This document shows positions 1,722 through 10,183 of a stretch of 10,651 nt of DNA, piece by piece. Every line of letters starts with the position of its first letter. The stretch's first letter is position 1. The stretch comes from a virus (lineage: Duplodnaviria > Heunggongvirae > Uroviricota > Caudoviricetes): the IMG/VR virus record IMGVR_UViG_2698536677_000015; one strand, given 5' to 3'. The notes under the pieces are model-generated. The model was not told the DNA's origin. It did not search any database and saw only the letters and a list, made by a program, of their open reading frames with translations. The translations under genes were made by a program, and so were the position numbers.

Positions 1722-2419
1722 TGCAGGATATTCACGAAGAAAGCCTGAACGAGTCGGTTAAGTCAGAGCAGTCACCGCGTGTGGTACTCTGGGAAATCGA
1801 CCTGACGGTGCAGGGCGGTGAGCGCTATTTTTTCTGCAATGAACTGAATGAAAAAGGGGAGCCGGTCACCTGGCAGGGGCGTGAATATCAGGCGTACCCG
1901 ATTGACGGCAGCGGCTTTGAGATGAACGGGAAGGGCAGCAGTGCCAGACCGTCGCTGACGGTGTCCAATCTGTTTGGCCTTGTCACCGGAATGGCGGAGG
2001 ACCTGCAGAGCCTGGTGGGGGCCACGGTGGTCCGCCGCCGGGTGTATGCCCGTTTTCTGGATGCGGTGAATTTTGTGGCGGGCAATCCGGAAGCGGACCC
2101 GGAGCAGGAGCTGAGCGACCGCTGGGTGGTGGAGCAGATGTCAGAGCTGACGGCCATGACAGCCTCGTTTGTGCTGGCAACACCGACGGAGACGGACGGA
2201 GCGCTGTTTCCCGGTCGCATTATGCTGGCGAATACCTGTATGTGGGATTACCGGGGAGATGAATGCGGGTATAACGGTCCTGCGGTGGCGGATGAGTTCG
2301 ACAACCCCACCACGGATATCCGTAAGGACAGATGCAGCAAGTGCATGCGTGGGTGTGAACTGCGCAGGAATGTCGGCAATTTTGGCGGTTTCCTTTCCAT
2401 TAATAAACTTTCGCAGTAA
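1721..2419 (+). CDS. L: Minor tail protein L (lambda gpL family), with a Cys-rich C-terminal domain
   Basis: ATG at 1721 (MQDIHEESLNE...). Strong similarity to lambda gpL throughout (VVLWEIDL, GERYFFCNE, GEPVTWQGREYQ). C-terminal CxnC...CxxCxxxC cysteine cluster and terminal GNFGGFLSINKLSQ. The track ORF 1694..2419 begins at an upstream in-frame Met; 1721 is preferred because of the ATGA coupling with M and the lambda-like N-terminus. Confidence 0.85.
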   Translation: MQDIHEESLNESVKSEQSPRVVLWEIDLTVQGGERYFFCNELNEKGEPVTWQGREYQAYPIDGSGFEMNGKGSSARPSLTVSNLFGLVTGMAEDLQSLVGATVVRRRVYARFLDAVNFVAGNPEADPEQELSDRWVVEQMSELTAMTASFVLATPTETDGALFPGRIMLANTCMWDYRGDECGYNGPAVADEFDNPTTDIRKDRCSKCMRGCELRRNVGNFGGFLSINKLSQ

Positions 2420-2429
2420 ATCCCGGTTT

Positions 2430-3173
2430 ATGACACAGACTGAATCAGCGATTCTGGCACATGCCCGGCGGTGTGCGCCTGCGGAGTCGTGCGGCTTCGT
2501 GATAAGCACGCCGGAGGGGGAGCGGTATATCCCTTGTGTGAATATTTCCGCAGAGCCGGAGGCGTATTTTCGTATCGCACCGGAAGACTGGCTGCGGGCA
2601 GAGATGCAGGGGGAGATTGTGGCACTGGTCCACAGTCATCCCGGTGGGCTGCCCTGGCTGAGCGAGGCTGACCGGCGGCTGCAGATAAAAAGCGCACTGC
2701 CCTGGTGGCTGGTCTGCCGGGGTGACATTCACAAATTCCGCTGTGTGCCACATCTGACAGGACGGCGCTTTGAGCACGGGGTGACGGACTGTTACACGCT
2801 GTTCCGGGATGCCTACCATCTGGCGGGAATTGATATGCCGGATTTTGAGCGTGAGGATGACTGGTGGCGTAACGGTCAGAACCTTTACCTGGACAATATG
2901 GCGGTCACCGGCTTTTACCGGGTGCCCCTGTCCTCTGCACAGGCGGGCGATATCCTGCTGTGCTGCTTTGGCGCATCGGTGGCCAATCATGCCGCCATAT
3001 ACTGCGGCAACGGTGAGCTGCTTCACCATCTGCCTGAACAACTGAGTAAACGGGAGAGGTATTCCGAAAAATGGCAACGACGAACGCATTCAGCCTGGCG
3101 TCACCGCCACTGGCACGCATCTGCCTTCACGGGGATTTGCAACGATTTGGCCGCCGCCTCAGCCTGTATGTGA
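2430..3173 (+). CDS. K: Tail assembly protein K, copy 1 (N-terminal JAB/MPN-type metalloprotease motif plus C-terminal NlpC/P60-like domain)
   Basis: 247-aa product (MTQTESAILAHARRC...). JAMM-like motif E19-SCGF ... H68-S-H70-x7-S78-x2-D81 (EIVALVHSHPGGLPWLSEAD). C-terminal Cys/His region (GVTDCY ... NHAAIYCG) typical of NlpC/P60. The track ORF 2169..3173 is the same frame extended back into L; ATG 2430 lies 10 nt after the L stop. Confidence 0.85.
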   Translation: MTQTESAILAHARRCAPAESCGFVISTPEGERYIPCVNISAEPEAYFRIAPEDWLRAEMQGEIVALVHSHPGGLPWLSEADRRLQIKSALPWWLVCRGDIHKFRCVPHLTGRRFEHGVTDCYTLFRDAYHLAGIDMPDFEREDDWWRNGQNLYLDNMAVTGFYRVPLSSAQAGDILLCCFGASVANHAAIYCGNGELLHHLPEQLSKRERYSEKWQRRTHSAWRHRHWHASAFTGICNDLAAASACM

Positions 3174-3751
3174 ACACGGCAGCGGAAGCCATTCGCGCCC
3201 TGTCGATGCAGATGCCGGGCTTTCGCCGTCAGATGAACGAAGGCTGGTACCAGATACGTATTCGCGGTGAGGACACGGCACCGGAGGCGGTGTACGCCCG
3301 TCTTCACGAACAGCTGGGTGAGGGGGCGGTCATCCATATTGTGCCGCGACTGGCCGGGGCCGGAAAGGGTGGACTGCAGATTGTGCTGGGGGCGGCAGCC
3401 ATCGTGGGCTCTTTCTTCACTGCCGGGGCATCAATGGCGTTATGGGGTTCAGCCCTGGCAGCCGGTGGTTTTTCTGCCACCACGATGCTGTTTTCACTGG
3501 GGGCCAGCATGATACTGGGTGGTGTGGCACAGATGCTTGCCCCGAAGCCAAAAACACCGGAATACAGGGCAACGGATAACGGCAGACAGAACACGTACTT
3601 TTCCTCGCTGGATAACATGATTGCCCAGGGGAACCCGATGCCGGTGCCTTACGGTGAAATGCTGGTTGGCTCCCGGCGAATCTCCCAGGACATCAGTACC
3701 CGTGATGAAGGCGGTGACGGGAAGATGGTGGTTATCGGGCGGCAGGCATAA
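3071..3751 (+). CDS. I: Tail assembly protein I, copy 1 (lambda gpI family)
   Basis: 226-aa ORF (MATTNAFSLASPPLARICLHGDLQRFGRR...) with a hydrophobic Gly/Ala-rich central segment and DNGRQNTYFSSLDNM. Start is embedded in the 3' end of K in another frame (103-nt overlap), as in lambda. GGAGAGG lies upstream of the ATG. Confidence 0.85.
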   Translation: MATTNAFSLASPPLARICLHGDLQRFGRRLSLYVNTAAEAIRALSMQMPGFRRQMNEGWYQIRIRGEDTAPEAVYARLHEQLGEGAVIHIVPRLAGAGKGGLQIVLGAAAIVGSFFTAGASMALWGSALAAGGFSATTMLFSLGASMILGGVAQMLAPKPKTPEYRATDNGRQNTYFSSLDNMIAQGNPMPVPYGEMLVGSRRISQDISTRDEGGDGKMVVIGRQA

Positions 3752-3773
3752 AAGCGAAAAAATCCCGCAGTGA

Positions 3774-3988
3774 TGTTTCCCGGTCGCATCATGCTGGCGA
3801 ACACCTGTATGTGGGATTACCGGGGAGATGAATGCGGGTATAACGGTCCTGCGGTGGCGGATGAGTTCGATAAACCCACCACCGATATCCGTAAGGACAG
3901 ATGCAGCAAGTGCATGCGCGGGTGTGAGATGCGCGGCATGGTGGCTAATTTTGGCGGTTTCCTTTCCATTAACAAACTTTCGCAGTAA
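3774..3988 (+). pseudogene. Detached 3' fragment of gene L (last ~70 codons, complete Cys-cluster domain) heading repeat unit 2
   Basis: Sequence from about 3774 matches L from about 2203 onward (FPGRIMLANTCMWDYRGDECGYNGPAVADEF...INKLSQ) at roughly 95% identity. It is joined abruptly to the I-downstream sequence at 3773/3774. An in-frame GTG-ATG at 3770..3775 gives a possible 72-aa ORF. Confidence 0.7.
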
Positions 3989-3993
3989 ATCCA

Positions 3994-4737
3994 ATGACAC
4001 AGACAGAATCAGCGATTCTGGCGCATGCCCGGCGGTGTGTGCCTGCGGAGTCGTGCGGCTTCGTGGTGAGAACGCCGGAGGGGGAGCGGTATATCCCTTG
4101 TGTGAATATCTCTGCAGAGCCGGAGGCGTATTTTCGTATTGCACCGGAAGACTGGCTGCGGGCAGAGATGCAGGGGGAGATTGTGGCACTGGTCCACAGT
4201 CATCCCGGTGGTCTGCCCTGGCTGAGCGAGGCCGACCGGCGGCTGCAGATAAAAAGTGCACTGTCCTGGTGGCTGGTCTGCCGGGGGGAAATTCATAAAT
4301 TCCGCTGTGTGCCACATCTGACAGGACGGCGCTTTGAGCACGGGGTGACGGACTGTTACACGCTGTTCCGGGATGCCTGCCATCTGGCGGGAATTGATAT
4401 GCCGGATTTTGAGCGTGAGGATGACTGGTGGCGCAACGGTCAGAACCTTTACCTGGACAATATGGCGGTCACCGGCTTTTACCGGGTGCCCCTGTCCTCT
4501 GCACAGGCGGGCGATATCCTGCTGTGCTGCTTTGGTGCTTCGGTACCGAACCATGCCGCCATTTACTGCGGCAACGGTGAACTGCTTCACCATCTGCCTG
4601 AACAACTGAGTAAACGGGAGAGGTATTCCGAAAAATGGCAACGACGAACGCATTCTGTCTGGCGTCACCGCCACTGGCACGCATCTGCCTTCACGGGGAT
4701 TTGCAACGATTTGGCCGCCGCCTCAGCCTGTACGTGA
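3994..4737 (+). CDS. K: Tail assembly protein K, copy 2 (allele B)
   Basis: 247-aa ORF, about 95% identical to copy 1 with scattered substitutions (CVPAESCGFVVRT, ALSWW, RGEIH, RDACH, SVPNH, ...SACT). The L-stop to K-start spacer is 5 nt here against 10 nt in copy 1. Confidence 0.8.
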   Translation: MTQTESAILAHARRCVPAESCGFVVRTPEGERYIPCVNISAEPEAYFRIAPEDWLRAEMQGEIVALVHSHPGGLPWLSEADRRLQIKSALSWWLVCRGEIHKFRCVPHLTGRRFEHGVTDCYTLFRDACHLAGIDMPDFEREDDWWRNGQNLYLDNMAVTGFYRVPLSSAQAGDILLCCFGASVPNHAAIYCGNGELLHHLPEQLSKRERYSEKWQRRTHSVWRHRHWHASAFTGICNDLAAASACT

Positions 4738-5315
4738 ACACGGCAGCGGAAGCCATCCGTGCCCTGTCGCTGCAGGTGCCGGGATTCCGCCGCCAGATGA
4801 ACGAAGGCTGGTACCAGATACGTATTGCTGGTGAGGACACGGCACCGGAGGCGGTGTATGCCCGCCTTCACGAACAACTGGGTGAGGGGGCGGTCATCCA
4901 TATTGTGCCGCGACTGGCCGGTGCAGGGAAAGGCGGACTGCAGATTGTGCTGGGGGCGGCAGCCATCGTGGGCTCTTTCTTCACGGCCGGAGCATCGATG
5001 GCAGCCTGGGGGGCAGCGCTGAGTGCCGGCGGTTTTTCTGCCACCACGATGCTGTTTTCACTGGGTGCCAGCATGATACTGGGTGGTGTGGCACAGATGC
5101 TGGCCCCGAAGCCAAAAACACCGGAATACAGGGCAACGGATAACGGTAAACAGAACACGTACTTTTCGTCGCTGGATAACATGATTGCCCAGGGGAACCC
5201 GATGCCGGTGCCTTACGGTGAAATGCTGGTTGGCTCCCGGCGAATCTCCCAGGACATCAGCACCCGTGATGAAGGCGGGGGCGGAACGGTCGTGGTTATC
5301 GGGCGACAGGGATAA
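4635..5315 (+). CDS. I: Tail assembly protein I, copy 2 (allele B)
   Basis: 226-aa ORF, near-identical to copy 1 with substitutions across the length (FCLASP, SLQVPGF, IRIAGED, AAWGAALSAGG, ...GGGGTVVVIGRQG). Confidence 0.8.
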   Translation: MATTNAFCLASPPLARICLHGDLQRFGRRLSLYVNTAAEAIRALSLQVPGFRRQMNEGWYQIRIAGEDTAPEAVYARLHEQLGEGAVIHIVPRLAGAGKGGLQIVLGAAAIVGSFFTAGASMAAWGAALSAGGFSATTMLFSLGASMILGGVAQMLAPKPKTPEYRATDNGKQNTYFSSLDNMIAQGNPMPVPYGEMLVGSRRISQDISTRDEGGGGTVVVIGRQG

Positions 5316-5320
5316 AACAT

Positions 5321-5354
5321 AAAAAAATCCCGCAGTGATCGCGGAGCTGCGGGG
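5321..5354 (-). terminator. Candidate intrinsic terminator for leftward transcription (hairpin with a T-tract on the minus strand)
   Basis: Plus strand reads AAAAAAA-TCCCGCAG-(11-nt loop)-CTGCGGGG. On the minus strand this is a GC-rich stem-loop followed by TTTTTTT. No convincing minus-strand gene lies upstream of it in this copy. Confidence 0.4.
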
Positions 5355-5538
5355 ACAGACAAATGAAGATCAATGTTAAGGAGTTGTTTTTGTTACTCGG
5401 GCAAAAAAACACTAACGCAGCGAAATTATAAGCGCCACAGTCAGTGTGTGAAAATGTGAAGATATTCAGAATTTTTATGCCATTACCGGTTTTAACCAAC
5501 AGGATTATCGGTGGGCATGAAAGAAAACCCCGGTATCA

Positions 5539-5673
5539 GTGGCGGATGAGTTCGATAAACCCACCACCGATATCCGTAAGGACAGATGCAGCAAGTGCAT
5601 GCGCGGGTGTGAGATGCGCGGCATGGTGGCTAATTTTGGCGGTTTCCTTTCCATTAACAAACTTTCGCAGTAA
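5539..5673 (+). pseudogene. Shorter detached 3' fragment of gene L (last ~44 codons) heading repeat unit 3
   Basis: From 5539 the sequence matches the L 3' end (VADEFDKPTTDIRKDRCSKCMRGC...INKLSQ). The first two cysteines of the cluster are missing. It is joined to spacer sequence at 5537..5539. Confidence 0.65.
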
Positions 5674-5678
5674 ATCCA

Positions 5679-6422
5679 ATGACACAGACAGAATCAGCGA
5701 TTCTGGCGCATGCCCGGCGGTGTGTGCCTGCGGAGTCGTGCGGCTTCGTGGTGAGAACGCCGGAGGGGGAGCGGTATATCCCTTGTGTGAATATCTCTGC
5801 AGAGCCGGAGGCGTATTTTCGTATTGCACCGGAAGACTGGCTGCGGGCAGAGATGCAGGGGGAGATTGTGGCACTGGTCCACAGTCATCCCGGTGGTCTG
5901 CCCTGGCTGAGCGAGGCCGACCGGCGGCTGCAGATAAAAAGTGCACTGTCCTGGTGGCTGGTCTGCCGGGGGGAAATTCATAAATTCCGCTGTGTGCCAC
6001 ATCTGACAGGACGGCGCTTTGAGCACGGGGTGACGGACTGTTACACGCTGTTCCGGGATGCCTACCATCTGGCGGGAATTGATATGCCGGATTTTGAGCG
6101 TGAGGATGACTGGTGGCGCAACGGTCAGAACCTGTACCTGGACAATATGGAGGCGACTGGTTTTTACAGGATTTCCCTGCCTTCCGCACAGCCTGGCGAT
6201 ATCCTGCTGTGCTGCTTTGGCGCATCGGTGGCCAATCATGCCGCCATATACTGCGGCAACGGTGAGCTGCTTCACCATCTGCCTGAACAACTGAGTAAAC
6301 GGGAGAGGTATTCCGAAAAATGGCAACGACGAACGCATTCAGCCTGGCGTCACCGCCACTGGCACGTATCTGCCTTCACGGGGATTTACAACGATTTGGC
6401 CGCCGCCTCAGCCTGTATGTGA
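5679..6422 (+). CDS. K: Tail assembly protein K, copy 3 (mosaic allele)
   Basis: 247-aa ORF. The 5' part is identical to copy 2, the middle carries copy-1-like residues (RDAYH, SVANH, HSAW), and a divergent patch of about 60 nt (around 6134..6190) encodes DNMEATGFYRISLPSAQPGD, present in neither other copy. Confidence 0.8.
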   Translation: MTQTESAILAHARRCVPAESCGFVVRTPEGERYIPCVNISAEPEAYFRIAPEDWLRAEMQGEIVALVHSHPGGLPWLSEADRRLQIKSALSWWLVCRGEIHKFRCVPHLTGRRFEHGVTDCYTLFRDAYHLAGIDMPDFEREDDWWRNGQNLYLDNMEATGFYRISLPSAQPGDILLCCFGASVANHAAIYCGNGELLHHLPEQLSKRERYSEKWQRRTHSAWRHRHWHVSAFTGIYNDLAAASACM

Positions 6423-7321
6423 ACACGGCAGCGGAAGCCATCCGTGCCCTGTCGATGCAGATGCCGGGATTCCGCCGTCAGATGAACGAAGGCTGGTACC
6501 AGATACGTATTCGCGGTGAGGACACGGCACCGGAGGCGGTGTACGCCCGTCTTCACGAACAGCTGGGTGAGGGAACGGTCATCCACATTGTGCCGCGACT
6601 GGCCGGGGCCGGAAAGGGTGGACTGCAGATTGTGCTGGGGGCGGCAGCCATCGTGGGCTCTTTCTTCACTGCCGGGGCATCAATGGCGTTATGGGGTTCA
6701 GCCCTGGCAGCCGGTGGTTTTTCTGCCACCACGATGCTGTTTTCTCTGGGGGCCAGCATGATTCTGGGTGGTGTGGCTCAGATGCTGGCCCCGAAGGCTA
6801 AAGTACCGGAGTACAAAAGCACGGATAACGGCAGACAGAACACGTATTTTTCGTCACTGGACAACATGATTGCCCAGGGAAAATTCCGCTGTGTGCCACA
6901 TCTGACAGGACGGCGCTTTGAGCACGGGGTGACGGACTGTTACACGCTGTTCCGGGATGCCTGCCATCTGGCGGGAATTGATATGCCGGATTTTGAGCGT
7001 GAGGATGACTGGTGGCGCAACGGTCAGAACCTTTACCTGGACAATATGGCGGTCACCGGCTTTTACCGGGTGCCCCTGTCCTCTGCACAGGCGGGCGATA
7101 TCCTGCTGTGCTGCTTTGGTGCTTCGGTACCGAACCATGCCGCCATTTACTGCGGCAACGGTGAACTGCTTCACCATCTGCCTGAACAACTGAGTAAACG
7201 GGAGAGGTATTCCGAAAAATGGCAACGACGAACGCATTCTGTCTGGCGTCACCGCCACTGGCACGCATCTGCCTTCACGGGGATTTGCAACGATTTGGCC
7301 GCCGCCTCAGCCTGTACGTGA
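6320..7321 (+). CDS. In-frame I-K fusion ORF: I residues 1-187 joined to K residues 102-247 (NlpC/P60-like half only)
   Basis: 333-aa ORF. The N-terminal part is I sequence up to ...SLDNMIAQG (codon 187 ends at 6880). It then continues directly as K from KFRCVPHLTGRRFEHG... in the copy-2 (allele B) version through to the K stop. Junction is at about 6879..6883. Confidence 0.7.
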   Translation: MATTNAFSLASPPLARICLHGDLQRFGRRLSLYVNTAAEAIRALSMQMPGFRRQMNEGWYQIRIRGEDTAPEAVYARLHEQLGEGTVIHIVPRLAGAGKGGLQIVLGAAAIVGSFFTAGASMALWGSALAAGGFSATTMLFSLGASMILGGVAQMLAPKAKVPEYKSTDNGRQNTYFSSLDNMIAQGKFRCVPHLTGRRFEHGVTDCYTLFRDACHLAGIDMPDFEREDDWWRNGQNLYLDNMAVTGFYRVPLSSAQAGDILLCCFGASVPNHAAIYCGNGELLHHLPEQLSKRERYSEKWQRRTHSVWRHRHWHASAFTGICNDLAAASACT

Positions 7322-7899
7322 ACACGGCAGCGGAAGCCATCCGTGCCCTGTCGCTGCAGGTGCCGGGATTCCGCCGCCAGATGAACGAAGGCTGGTACCA
7401 GATACGTATTGCTGGTGAGGACACGGCACCGGAGGCGGTGTATGCCCGCCTTCACGAACAACTGGGTGAGGGGGCGGTCATCCATATTGTGCCGCGACTG
7501 GCCGGTGCAGGGAAAGGCGGACTGCAGATTGTGCTGGGGGCGGCAGCCATCGTGGGCTCTTTCTTCACGGCCGGAGCATCGATGGCAGCCTGGGGGGCAG
7601 CGCTGAGTGCCGGCGGTTTTTCTGCCACCACGATGCTGTTTTCACTGGGTGCCAGCATGATACTGGGTGGTGTGGCACAGATGCTGGCCCCGAAGCCAAA
7701 AACACCGGAATACAGGGCAACGGATAACGGTAAACAGAACACGTACTTTTCGTCGCTGGATAACATGATTGCCCAGGGGAACCCGATGCCGGTGCCTTAC
7801 GGTGAAATGCTGGTTGGCTCCCGGCGAATCTCCCAGGACATCAGCACCCGTGATGAAGGCGGGGGCGGAACGGTCGTGGTTATCGGGCGACAGGGATAA
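7219..7899 (+). CDS. I: Tail assembly protein I, copy 4 (identical in protein sequence to copy 2)
   Basis: 226-aa ORF with the same translation as 4635..5315. It starts inside the K-derived part of the fusion ORF in the usual K/I overlap arrangement. Confidence 0.8.
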   Translation: MATTNAFCLASPPLARICLHGDLQRFGRRLSLYVNTAAEAIRALSLQVPGFRRQMNEGWYQIRIAGEDTAPEAVYARLHEQLGEGAVIHIVPRLAGAGKGGLQIVLGAAAIVGSFFTAGASMAAWGAALSAGGFSATTMLFSLGASMILGGVAQMLAPKPKTPEYRATDNGKQNTYFSSLDNMIAQGNPMPVPYGEMLVGSRRISQDISTRDEGGGGTVVVIGRQG

Positions 7900-7904
7900 A
7901 ACAT

Positions 7905-7938
7905 AAAAAAATCCCGCAGTGATCGCGGAGCTGCGGGG
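7905..7938 (-). terminator. Second copy of the candidate minus-strand hairpin/T-tract terminator
   Basis: Same sequence as 5321..5354, at an offset of 2584 bp. Confidence 0.4.
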
Positions 7939-8103
7939 ACAGACAAATGAAGATCAATGTTAAGGAGTTGTTTTTGTTACTCGGGCAAAAAAACACTAAC
8001 GCAGCGAAATTATAAGCGCCACAGTCAGTGTGTGAAAATGTGAAGATATTCAGAATTTTTATGCCATTACCGGTTTTAACCAACAGGATTATCGGTGGGC
8101 ATG

Positions 8104-8144
8104 AAAGAAAACCCCGGTATCTGCTGATACCGGGGGTTCTCTTT
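8104..8144. terminator. Perfect 10-bp inverted repeat hairpin with T/A-rich flanks; candidate bidirectional terminator
   Basis: CCCCGGTATC-TGCT-GATACCGGGG at 8112..8135, followed by GTTCTCTTT on the plus strand and preceded by AAAGAAAA (a T-rich run on the minus strand). Confidence 0.45.
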
Positions 8145-8241
8145 AGCATGGCAGAAATGTGTTTCATGCTTTTCGGGCGAAGGATATCCGACTTCTGTAC
8201 GGAATGGCAAGTGGCGGTTAATTTATTCAGGGGAAGGCTGT

Positions 8242-8263
8242 ATGGGAAAAGGTGGCGGTAAGA
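8242..8263 (+). other. 22-bp remnant of a J-gene start (ATGGGAAAAGGTGGCGGTAAGA, encoding MGKGGGK) with its own upstream purine-rich RBS-like sequence
   Basis: Closely matches the true J start at 10317 (ATGGGCAAAGGTGGCGGC..., MGKGGGR). It is preceded by AGGGGAAGG and joined at 8263/8264 to internal K sequence. The ATG is out of frame with the K fragment and would give only about 49 codons. Confidence 0.5.
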
Positions 8264-8887
8264 GCAGAGCCGGAGGCGTATTTTCGTATCGCACCGGAAG
8301 ACTGGCTGCGGGCAGAGATGCAGGGGGAGATTGTGGCACTGGTCCACAGTCATCCCGGTGGGCTGCCCTGGCTGAGCGAGGCTGACCGGCGGCTGCAGAT
8401 AAAAAGCGCACTGCCCTGGTGGCTGGTCTGCCGGGGTGACATTCACAAATTCCGCTGTGTGCCACATCTGACAGGACGGCGCTTTGAGCACGGGGTGACG
8501 GACTGTTACACGCTGTTCCGGGATGCCTACCATCTGGCGGGAATTGATATGCCGGATTTTGAGCGTGAGGATGACTGGTGGCGTAACGGTCAGAACCTTT
8601 ACCTGGACAATATGGCGGTCACCGGCTTTTACCGGGTGCCCCTGTCCTCTGCACAGGCGGGCGATATCCTGCTGTGCTGCTTTGGCGCATCGGTGGCCAA
8701 TCATGCCGCCATATACTGCGGCAACGGTGAGCTGCTTCACCATCTGCCTGAACAACTGAGTAAACGGGAGAGGTATTCCGAAAAATGGCAACGACGAACG
8801 CATTCAGCCTGGCGTCACCGCCACTGGCACGCATCTGCCTTCACGGGGATTTGCAACGATTTGGCCGCCGCCTCAGCCTGTATGTGA
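8264..8887 (+). pseudogene. 5'-truncated K gene (codons 1-40 missing), copy-1 allele
   Basis: From 8264 the sequence aligns with K copy 1 from nt 121 onward, and the translation from AEPEAYFRIAPEDWL... is identical to copy 1. The region containing the conserved ESCGF glutamate is absent. An in-frame GTG at 8252 could initiate a 211-aa truncated product (track ORF 8252..8887). Confidence 0.7.
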
Positions 8888-9465
8888 ACACGGCAGCGGA
8901 AGCCATTCGCGCCCTGTCGATGCAGATGCCGGGCTTTCGCCGTCAGATGAACGAAGGCTGGTACCAGATACGTATTCGCGGTGAGGACACGGCACCGGAG
9001 GCGGTGTACGCCCGTCTTCACGAACAGCTGGGTGAGGGGGCGGTCATCCATATTGTGCCGCGACTGGCCGGGGCCGGAAAGGGTGGACTGCAGATTGTGC
9101 TGGGGGCGGCAGCCATCGTGGGCTCTTTCTTCACTGCCGGGGCATCAATGGCGTTATGGGGTTCAGCCCTGGCAGCCGGTGGTTTTTCTGCCACCACGAT
9201 GCTGTTTTCTCTGGGGGCCAGCATGATTCTGGGTGGTGTGGCTCAGATGCTGGCCCCGAAGGCTAAAGTACCGGAGTACAAAAGCACGGATAACGGCAGA
9301 CAGAACACGTATTTTTCGTCACTGGACAACATGATTGCCCAGGGTAACCCGATGCCGGTGCCTTACGGGGAAATGCTGGTTGGCTCCCGCCGTATATCCC
9401 AGGACATCAGTACCCGTGATGAAGGCGGGGGCGGAAAGGTCGTGGTTATCGGGCGGCAGGCATAA
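8785..9465 (+). CDS. I: Tail assembly protein I, copy 5 (allele C)
   Basis: 226-aa ORF. Mostly like copy 1, but with APKAKVPEYKST in place of APKPKTPEYRAT and GGGGKVVVIGRQA at the C-terminus. The same KAKVPEYKST variant is found in the I part of the fusion ORF. Confidence 0.8.
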   Translation: MATTNAFSLASPPLARICLHGDLQRFGRRLSLYVNTAAEAIRALSMQMPGFRRQMNEGWYQIRIRGEDTAPEAVYARLHEQLGEGAVIHIVPRLAGAGKGGLQIVLGAAAIVGSFFTAGASMALWGSALAAGGFSATTMLFSLGASMILGGVAQMLAPKAKVPEYKSTDNGRQNTYFSSLDNMIAQGNPMPVPYGEMLVGSRRISQDISTRDEGGGGKVVVIGRQA

Positions 9466-9470
9466 AAGCG

Positions 9471-9507
9471 AAAAAATCCCGCAGTGCTCACGGACAGGAA
9501 CTGCGGG
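9471..9507 (-). terminator. Candidate minus-strand hairpin/T-tract terminator downstream of I copy 5
   Basis: AAAAAA-CCCGCAG-(16-nt loop)-CTGCGGG on the plus strand. The stem arms are the same as in the 5321 and 7905 copies but the loop differs, and the loop is long, so this is a weak call. Confidence 0.3.
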
Positions 9508-9620
9508 AGCGTTACGAAGATTGAGTGTAAGGAATTATTCTTATGTCACGACAAAAACATTAACTCAGAGAGGGAGGATGTGCCGTTCTTTTCAGGGAGA
9601 AAGGATTTATCGTCCTGAGG

Positions 9621-9655: not shown

Positions 9656-10183
9656 TTATTGAATGATGCCGCAGGCCATTCTCGCACCACCACCGCCCAG
9701 GGGCTCCGGATGGTCATGATGGTTATCACCGCCAGCATGAAGCATGAGAGAACGCCCTTTAATCTCTTTTAATGAGTTCAGTCTCGGGGCCAGGACCGGG
9801 TAGTTCGCTTTTCCGTCATGCGTCACGAACAGCGCAGGGAGGTCGCCCAGGTGTCCATCCGGAGACCAGGGGCCAAGATGTTTGCCGGTGTTTTTCGGGT
9901 CAAAGTGACCGCCAGCCGATAATGCTGCGACCGGTTTTCCGTCTTTCAGTGCCGGGGCGCAATTTCCTTTTTCGTGCACATGAAAACCATGAATGCCTTC
10001 AGACAGAGAGTGAAGGGCTGGTGTGAACAGCAGACCGTAGGGGGTCTCCTGAATGGTTATTTTTCCAATGCTGACTTCTTTTCCGTCAGCACTGACAAGG
10101 TTCATTGGGACTTCCTGTTCTGCTGCGTATCCGCATGATGCTGCTGTCAGCATGGCAATGGCAGCAATGATTTTACATTTCAT
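9656..10183 (-). CDS. sodC: Periplasmic Cu/Zn superoxide dismutase (SodC family), a prophage cargo (moron) gene
   Basis: 175-aa product with an N-terminal signal peptide ([20 protein letters not shown]). Hallmark Cu/Zn-SOD motifs are present: [70 protein letters not shown] sits 5-6 nt upstream of the ATG at 10183..10181. The track ORF 9656..10642 is the same frame extended upstream antisense to J. Confidence 0.85.

Follow-up and report, generated by a model that had tools for sequence, protein, structure and literature searches.

The spacer between tail genes I and J of a lambda-like Escherichia coli prophage carries the small RNA gene pasB

PasB and other prophage-encoded small RNAs

PasB was described in 2021 by Pearl Mizrahi et al. 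among the Pas sRNAs of the EPEC O127:H6 strain E2348/69 (PMC8550237), in which it is encoded on the minus strand of prophage PP6 (identifier E2348CN_0006) as an 83-nt RNA at NC_011601 1466343->1466261, its ends having been set from RNA coverage and the approximate northern size, and its northern probe being AATCCCGCAGTGATCGCGGAGCT (Table S6, PMC8550237). Northern blotting in E2348/69 revealed a band of the expected size, the stability of PasB depends on Hfq, and its expression is higher in the non-activating growth condition (PMC8550237). RIL-seq on Hfq recovered 37 PasB partners in the same strain, mostly coding sequences and 5'UTRs (rank 15; Tables S5 and S6, PMC8550237), and PasB acts as the sRNA member of its chimeras (PMC8550237). 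More recently, PasB and PasB-2 were reported to be one nucleotide apart, at position 27, the E2348/69 sequence was found not to be the most prevalent PasB variant, and a seed located just upstream of the terminator was proposed from conservation only (Zhu, Shabalina and Storz, 2026; bioRxiv 10.64898/2026.05.13.724894).

The anti-sRNAs AgvB and AsxR of EHEC prophages are 51-60 nt long and encoded at the PR' moron site downstream of Q (PMC4104026). Like PasB, they are short, prophage-encoded, Hfq-binding RNAs; each is transcribed from a promoter of its own, combines a conserved 3' terminator module with a 5' pairing region that varies, contains ARN motifs and occupies an insertion-tolerant site. 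They differ from PasB in location, since pasB is part of the I-J interval within the tail operon. Here, we show that the AT-rich spacer downstream of gene I in a rearranged prophage tail region contains pasB, and we compare this locus with that of E2348/69 and with those of other phages.

The I-J spacer and its duplication

The DNA analyzed here, a stretch of 10,651 nucleotides to which we refer as the window, is a tail region of a lambda-like E. coli prophage in which the tape-measure gene is followed by M, L, K, I and J and which holds, in addition, partial reiterations of L'-K-I and a minus-strand sodC gene before the true J. L'-K-I is reiterated five times within 2200-9500; the junctions are abrupt and non-homologous, segments of two sequence types are interleaved, and some of the repeats are 100% identical over more than 1.2 kb. 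Relative to the single-copy reference locus of E. coli strain 4/1-1 (L001), the window re-enters L-K-I four times, with breakpoints at 3774, 5537/5538, 6881/6882 and 8262/8264. No colinear match to this scrambled architecture was found in complete E. coli genomes, the best match collapsing 3151 query bases onto about 1.83 kb, and the junction 5537/5538 had no match in GTDB representative genomes. Either the region has undergone a very unusual rearrangement, or the arrangement is artefactual (assembly or chimera).

The spacer is the intergenic region that separates I from J in a lambda-like E. coli prophage. Its first copy starts directly after the second copy of the tail assembly gene I (4734..5315, plus strand; Pfam Lambda_tail_I, E = 1.4e-9), whose length and position are those of the annotated I genes of L001 and of a second reference locus, L002. 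An earlier note, made from the letters of the window, had described an AT-rich spacer of about 220 bp that is present twice, and both features hold: 5316-5537 and 7900-8121 are 100% identical in a copy-versus-copy comparison, and the G+C content of the spacer is 41.4% compared to 56.8% for the whole window. Both copies are enclosed in a perfectly identical block of 1241 bp (4297-5537 = 6881-8121), which is the only reason why the spacer occurs twice. The ancestral position between I and J that the note had proposed is borne out by natural loci, including that of E2348/69, in which the order is I-pasB-J. In the window, the second copy is the complete I-J spacer, because it is followed by the first 21 nt of gene J (8242..8262, plus strand, from comparison with natural loci) before a junction into mid-K. 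The first copy of gene I is followed by a remnant comprising the first 23 nt of the spacer and half of the pasB terminator stem (3752..3774, minus strand), with a junction at 3774 back into gene L.

The J-proximal part of the spacer is variable. In the first copy it is represented by a truncated segment (5482..5537) that ends at the rearrangement junction 5537/5538, and the perfect palindrome that had been noted at the distal end is therefore reduced to its left arm (5528-5537). In the second copy the palindrome is complete (8112..8135; 10-bp arms and a 4-nt loop) and resembles a bidirectional terminator. The common natural I-J spacer, as found in L001, has this palindrome, and the spacer of the E2348/69 type lacks it. 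In the interval between the pasB promoter and J (8112-8241) the palindrome appears terminator-like on both strands, and a weak minus-strand promoter-like site at 8210-8181 (9/12 consensus positions) is predicted, which could yield a second transcript of ~70 nt ending at the palindrome; E2348/69-type spacers have, in place of the palindrome, a different hairpin followed by a plus-strand T-run.

The pasB gene in the window

The published PasB probe matches the plus strand of the window exactly at 5326-5348 and at 7910-7932, which puts the RNA on the minus strand, and it matched none of 200 shuffles (0/200). In E2348/69 the PasB coordinates fall between I (which ends at 1466255) and J (which starts at 1466496), in antisense orientation, and alignment of PasB together with its promoter revealed a single difference between the window and E2348/69, located by counting on the alignments at RNA position 27, with A in the window and C in E2348/69. 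Based on the probe match, the I-J location and the alignment, we assign the window PasB to 5403->5321 and 7987->7905. The first copy (5321..5403, minus strand), to which the published 83-nt coordinates were transferred, is 82/83 identical to NC_011601 1466343->1466261, and the second (7905..7987, minus strand) is identical to the first, as indicated by the copy comparison and the probe match. We conclude that the spacer carries pasB, a known sRNA gene that has been left out of genome annotations, and that the element itself is already known. The spacer had been taken to have no assigned function, a statement that no longer holds since it encodes a published sRNA (PMC8550237; bioRxiv 10.64898/2026.05.13.724894), and of the options offered for it in the earlier note the small RNA is the one that applies, the hairpin after I being the Rho-independent terminator of the minus-strand gene pasB.

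The window and E2348/69 loci thus have in common the 82/83 identity, the promoter (whose sequence is identical in the two), the terminator and a location between I and J in antisense orientation. They differ in three respects: the window carries the widespread A27 allele, whereas E2348/69 has C; the J-proximal half belongs to a 342-nt spacer with the 8112-8135 palindrome in the window and to a 240-nt spacer with a different hairpin in E2348/69; and pasB is present twice in the window through local rearrangement, unlike in E2348/69. The published evidence for expression pertains to the C27 allele of E2348/69.

The terminator (5321..5353, minus strand) was recovered by a terminator scan, by the minimum free energy fold and by alignment of homologues. 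It consists of the stem CCCGCAG/CUGCGGG followed by U7, with the DNA arms CCCGCAG at 5329-5335 and CTGCGGG at 5347-5353 and the T-run at 5328-5321; as had been stated from the letters, a minus-strand hairpin with a T-run follows the I stop codon, beginning 6 nt past it. Upstream of the RNA, a consensus scan identified a near-consensus sigma-70 promoter (5425..5452, minus strand) matching 11/12 consensus positions, with the -35 element TTCACA at 5452-5447, a 16-nt spacer and the -10 element TATAAT at 5430-5425, and the same promoter in the second copy at 8009..8036 (minus strand). The -10 box, ending at 5425, predicts a start near 5418, which lies 15 nt upstream of 5403, the equivalent of the published 5' end, such that 5404..5418 (minus strand) may be a 5' extension of the primary transcript and the predicted RNA is about 83-98 nt long (~98 nt from ~5418, 83 nt from 5403). 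Between the -35 element and 5481 lies an AT-rich stretch (5453..5481, minus strand), and conservation with homologues from other phages stops near 5481, as phage matches to the spacer query span only query positions 1-186, corresponding to 5296-5481. The first pasB copy follows I and is cut off on its distal side at 5537/5538; the second lies between I and the start of J and is convergent with I. We conclude that the conserved half of the spacer is a self-contained pasB gene and that the remainder is variable filler with a terminator-like palindrome.

An (ARN)5 run, AGUAACAAAAACAAC, is found in the body of PasB, as are two conserved motifs, UCCUU and AUCUUC, which precede the terminator. The 83-nt RNA folds no better than its shuffles (z = -0.81), so the description of the spacer as structured comes down to two hairpins, that of the terminator being common to the homologues. 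No Rfam 15 family matched the whole window at gathering thresholds, and at E values up to 10 the region 5250-5600 gave chance matches only, driven by the terminator. Pairing of the PasB body with the translation starts of J, J', sodC, K, I, L and M in the window did not beat shuffled controls for any of these genes.

Homologues, related RNAs and distribution

The promoter and the terminator of pasB are conserved in six divergent phage and prophage homologues, with variation in the first position of the -10 box (TATAAT, GATAAT or AATAAT). No helix other than that of the terminator is kept in all seven homologues, and because its stem is invariant there is no covariation to support it. In Stx-converting and related phages (Stx2c_JNE082796, JLK-2012, PhiR5_1 and 1720a-02), the I-J site and the terminator are as in pasB, and the PasB-like RNAs share with pasB a promoter of the form TTCACA, 16 nt, nATAAT and the UCCUU and AUCUUC motifs. 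The RNA body of this type differs from that of PasB, and with the cassette only about 75-82% identical the set of targets may differ as well. The records of PhiR12_1 (L003, 671-769) and 1720a-02 (L005, 574-726) carry plus-strand CDSs for a 'hypothetical protein' across pasB, which are probably spurious, as neither frame nor start codon is conserved among the homologues.

The window contains a third copy of the cassette, at 9471..9567 (minus strand) downstream of sodC, the Cu/Zn superoxide dismutase gene that precedes the true J (9656-10183, minus strand). It has a divergent PasB-like body of the Stx-phage type and the conserved terminator, and the body departs from that of the Stx-phage homologues only by a single substitution and by having one T less close to the 5' end. 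The match to the pasB promoter ends 3 nt after the -10 position, where the sodC insertion begins, so that this copy is without a promoter of its own, and promoter prediction there returned none. The hairpin directly after sodC (9649-9626) has a poor T-run, which makes read-through into the 9471-9567 RNA conceivable. From these sequence comparisons one may picture the I/J junction of lambdoid prophages as a modular sRNA cassette in which a constant promoter and terminator flank exchangeable bodies, at least the PasB and Stx-phage types, and of which the window would show a third state, the promoter having given way to the sodC insertion 3 nt downstream of the -10 box, such that the Stx-type RNA would arise only as a 3'UTR-derived product of sodC read-through; the perfectly complementary late transcript of lytic growth would in addition sponge PasB. 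We regard this scheme as speculative and would sooner expect it to fail than to hold.

Two other identities were considered and rejected. AgvB or another anti-GcvB RNA was contemplated first because of a CA-rich stretch, and was discarded on the grounds of its site at PR', its length of 51-60 nt and the CACAACA GcvB-target motif, which is missing from PasB. The AgvB/AsxR families RF02702 and RF02703, which describe a conserved 3' region of ~42 nt, were absent from the window at gathering score and also absent among the weak matches up to E = 10. EcOnc53 was considered as an earlier EHEC name for PasB; it is located in Sp5, after lom, and thus outside the I-J interval. In the Sakai strain, prophage Sp12 has an identical pasB core that is convergent with I, and a search for this locus in the CRAC table of Tree et al., by coordinates beginning 22174-22177 and assuming the numbering of NC_002695.2, gave no entry.

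A 166-nt pasB cassette was detected in 1813/5426 complete E. coli genomes, with 5544 occurrences in all and a maximum of 11 in a single genome, and no annotated feature lay under the cassette match (0/40 sampled rows). The best match was at least 99% identical to the cassette of the window in 865/1822 matching records, while an O127:H6 genome matches it at 98.2%; these counts for the A27 cassette are consistent with the preprint, according to which the PasB variant of E2348/69 is not the most prevalent. A search with the 342-nt spacer type in full length gave 1445 genomes with more than 80% coverage. Scanning 185,579 species representatives with a family pattern returned only Escherichia albertii and two short contigs, both of which consist of tail DNA from E. 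coli prophages that has been assigned to other taxa. This agrees with a published statement that the Pas sRNAs are confined to Escherichia and Shigella. Two contigs of ~3.4 kb, from Streptomyces flavalbus CGMCC 4.7400 (L009) and a Clostridiales MAG (L010), are 93-98% identical to the tail region and probably reflect contamination or mis-binning.

Function of the spacer

The explanation that we consider best, and hold with high confidence, is that the conserved half of the spacer is pasB, a minus-strand gene convergent with I that gives rise to an Hfq-binding, trans-acting sRNA. Transcription of pasB would start near 5418 from the near-consensus sigma-70 promoter at 5452-5425 and would end at the hairpin and U7 tract at 5353-5321. 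PasB would be made in the lysogen from its own promoter, independently of the silent late operon, would bind Hfq through its 3' U-tail and the (ARN)5 stretch, and would pair in trans with mRNAs through its unstructured body, with the UCCUU and AUCUUC motifs as candidate contacts.

PasB might instead serve mainly in cis, either as an antisense RNA to the I-J late mRNA or through hairpins that insulate or terminate between I and J, in which case its trans contacts would be incidental. PasB is indeed the perfect complement of any late transcript in its I-J intercistronic part, and in both common spacer types another terminator-like hairpin separates the pasB promoter from J. However, the RIL-seq data assign PasB 37 trans partners on Hfq and the role of sRNA partner in its chimeras, and PasB was detected in lysogens, in which the late operon is silent. 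We therefore consider a mainly cis-acting function unlikely, and a cis role could coexist with the trans role.

A second alternative, raised in the earlier note, is that a plus-strand promoter or operator in the spacer drives or regulates the tail gene J. The spacer is AT-rich and lies directly upstream of J in its natural context, yet consensus scans revealed no plus-strand sigma-70-like promoter in either copy, the near-consensus minus-strand promoter being the only one found. The part conserved across phages is, moreover, the unit from pasB promoter to pasB terminator, whereas the J-proximal part differs between spacer types. In lambda, I and J belong to one late operon that is read from PR' under Q antitermination, which also counts against a promoter for J. 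Altogether, this reading is highly improbable.

Hardly more credible, and in our estimate slightly less so, is the idea that the spacer encodes a small protein. Two reading frames do exist in the window according to the ORF list, a plus-strand ORF of 22 amino acids (MKINVKELFLLLGQKNTNAAKL, 5363-5431) and a minus-strand ORF of 67 amino acids (5499-5296), and in the GenBank records of PhiR12_1 and 1720a-02 this part of the spacer is labelled as coding for hypothetical proteins. Neither ORF matched Pfam in a scan of both, however; the ATG of the 22-aa ORF is ACG in the Stx-type homologues, and the 67-aa ORF has a TTG start and extends, in antisense, into gene I. Indels of 2, 3 and 5 nt distinguish the homologous spacers, such that no frame is kept, and the earlier judgement that there is no convincing ORF on either strand therefore stands. 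Finally, the spacer could be no more than neutral intergenic sequence or what is left of a decayed moron, its hairpins having arisen by chance, as the insignificant fold energy and the lack of covariation would allow. This reading has almost nothing left to recommend it given the exact match to an experimentally detected sRNA and the conservation of promoter and terminator across phages whose RNA bodies are 75-82% identical.

Overall, the earlier observation is partly confirmed and its interpretation partly supported, with the spacer resolved into an sRNA gene and a variable remainder. Identification of pasB at this site has value for annotation, the cassette being present in about one third of complete E. 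coli genomes and without an Rfam family, and recognizing it prevents calls of 'orphan structured spacers' in prophage tail regions. For the lysogen, the prophage supplies an Hfq-dependent regulator from inside a silent structural operon, a point already made in 2021 and 2026.
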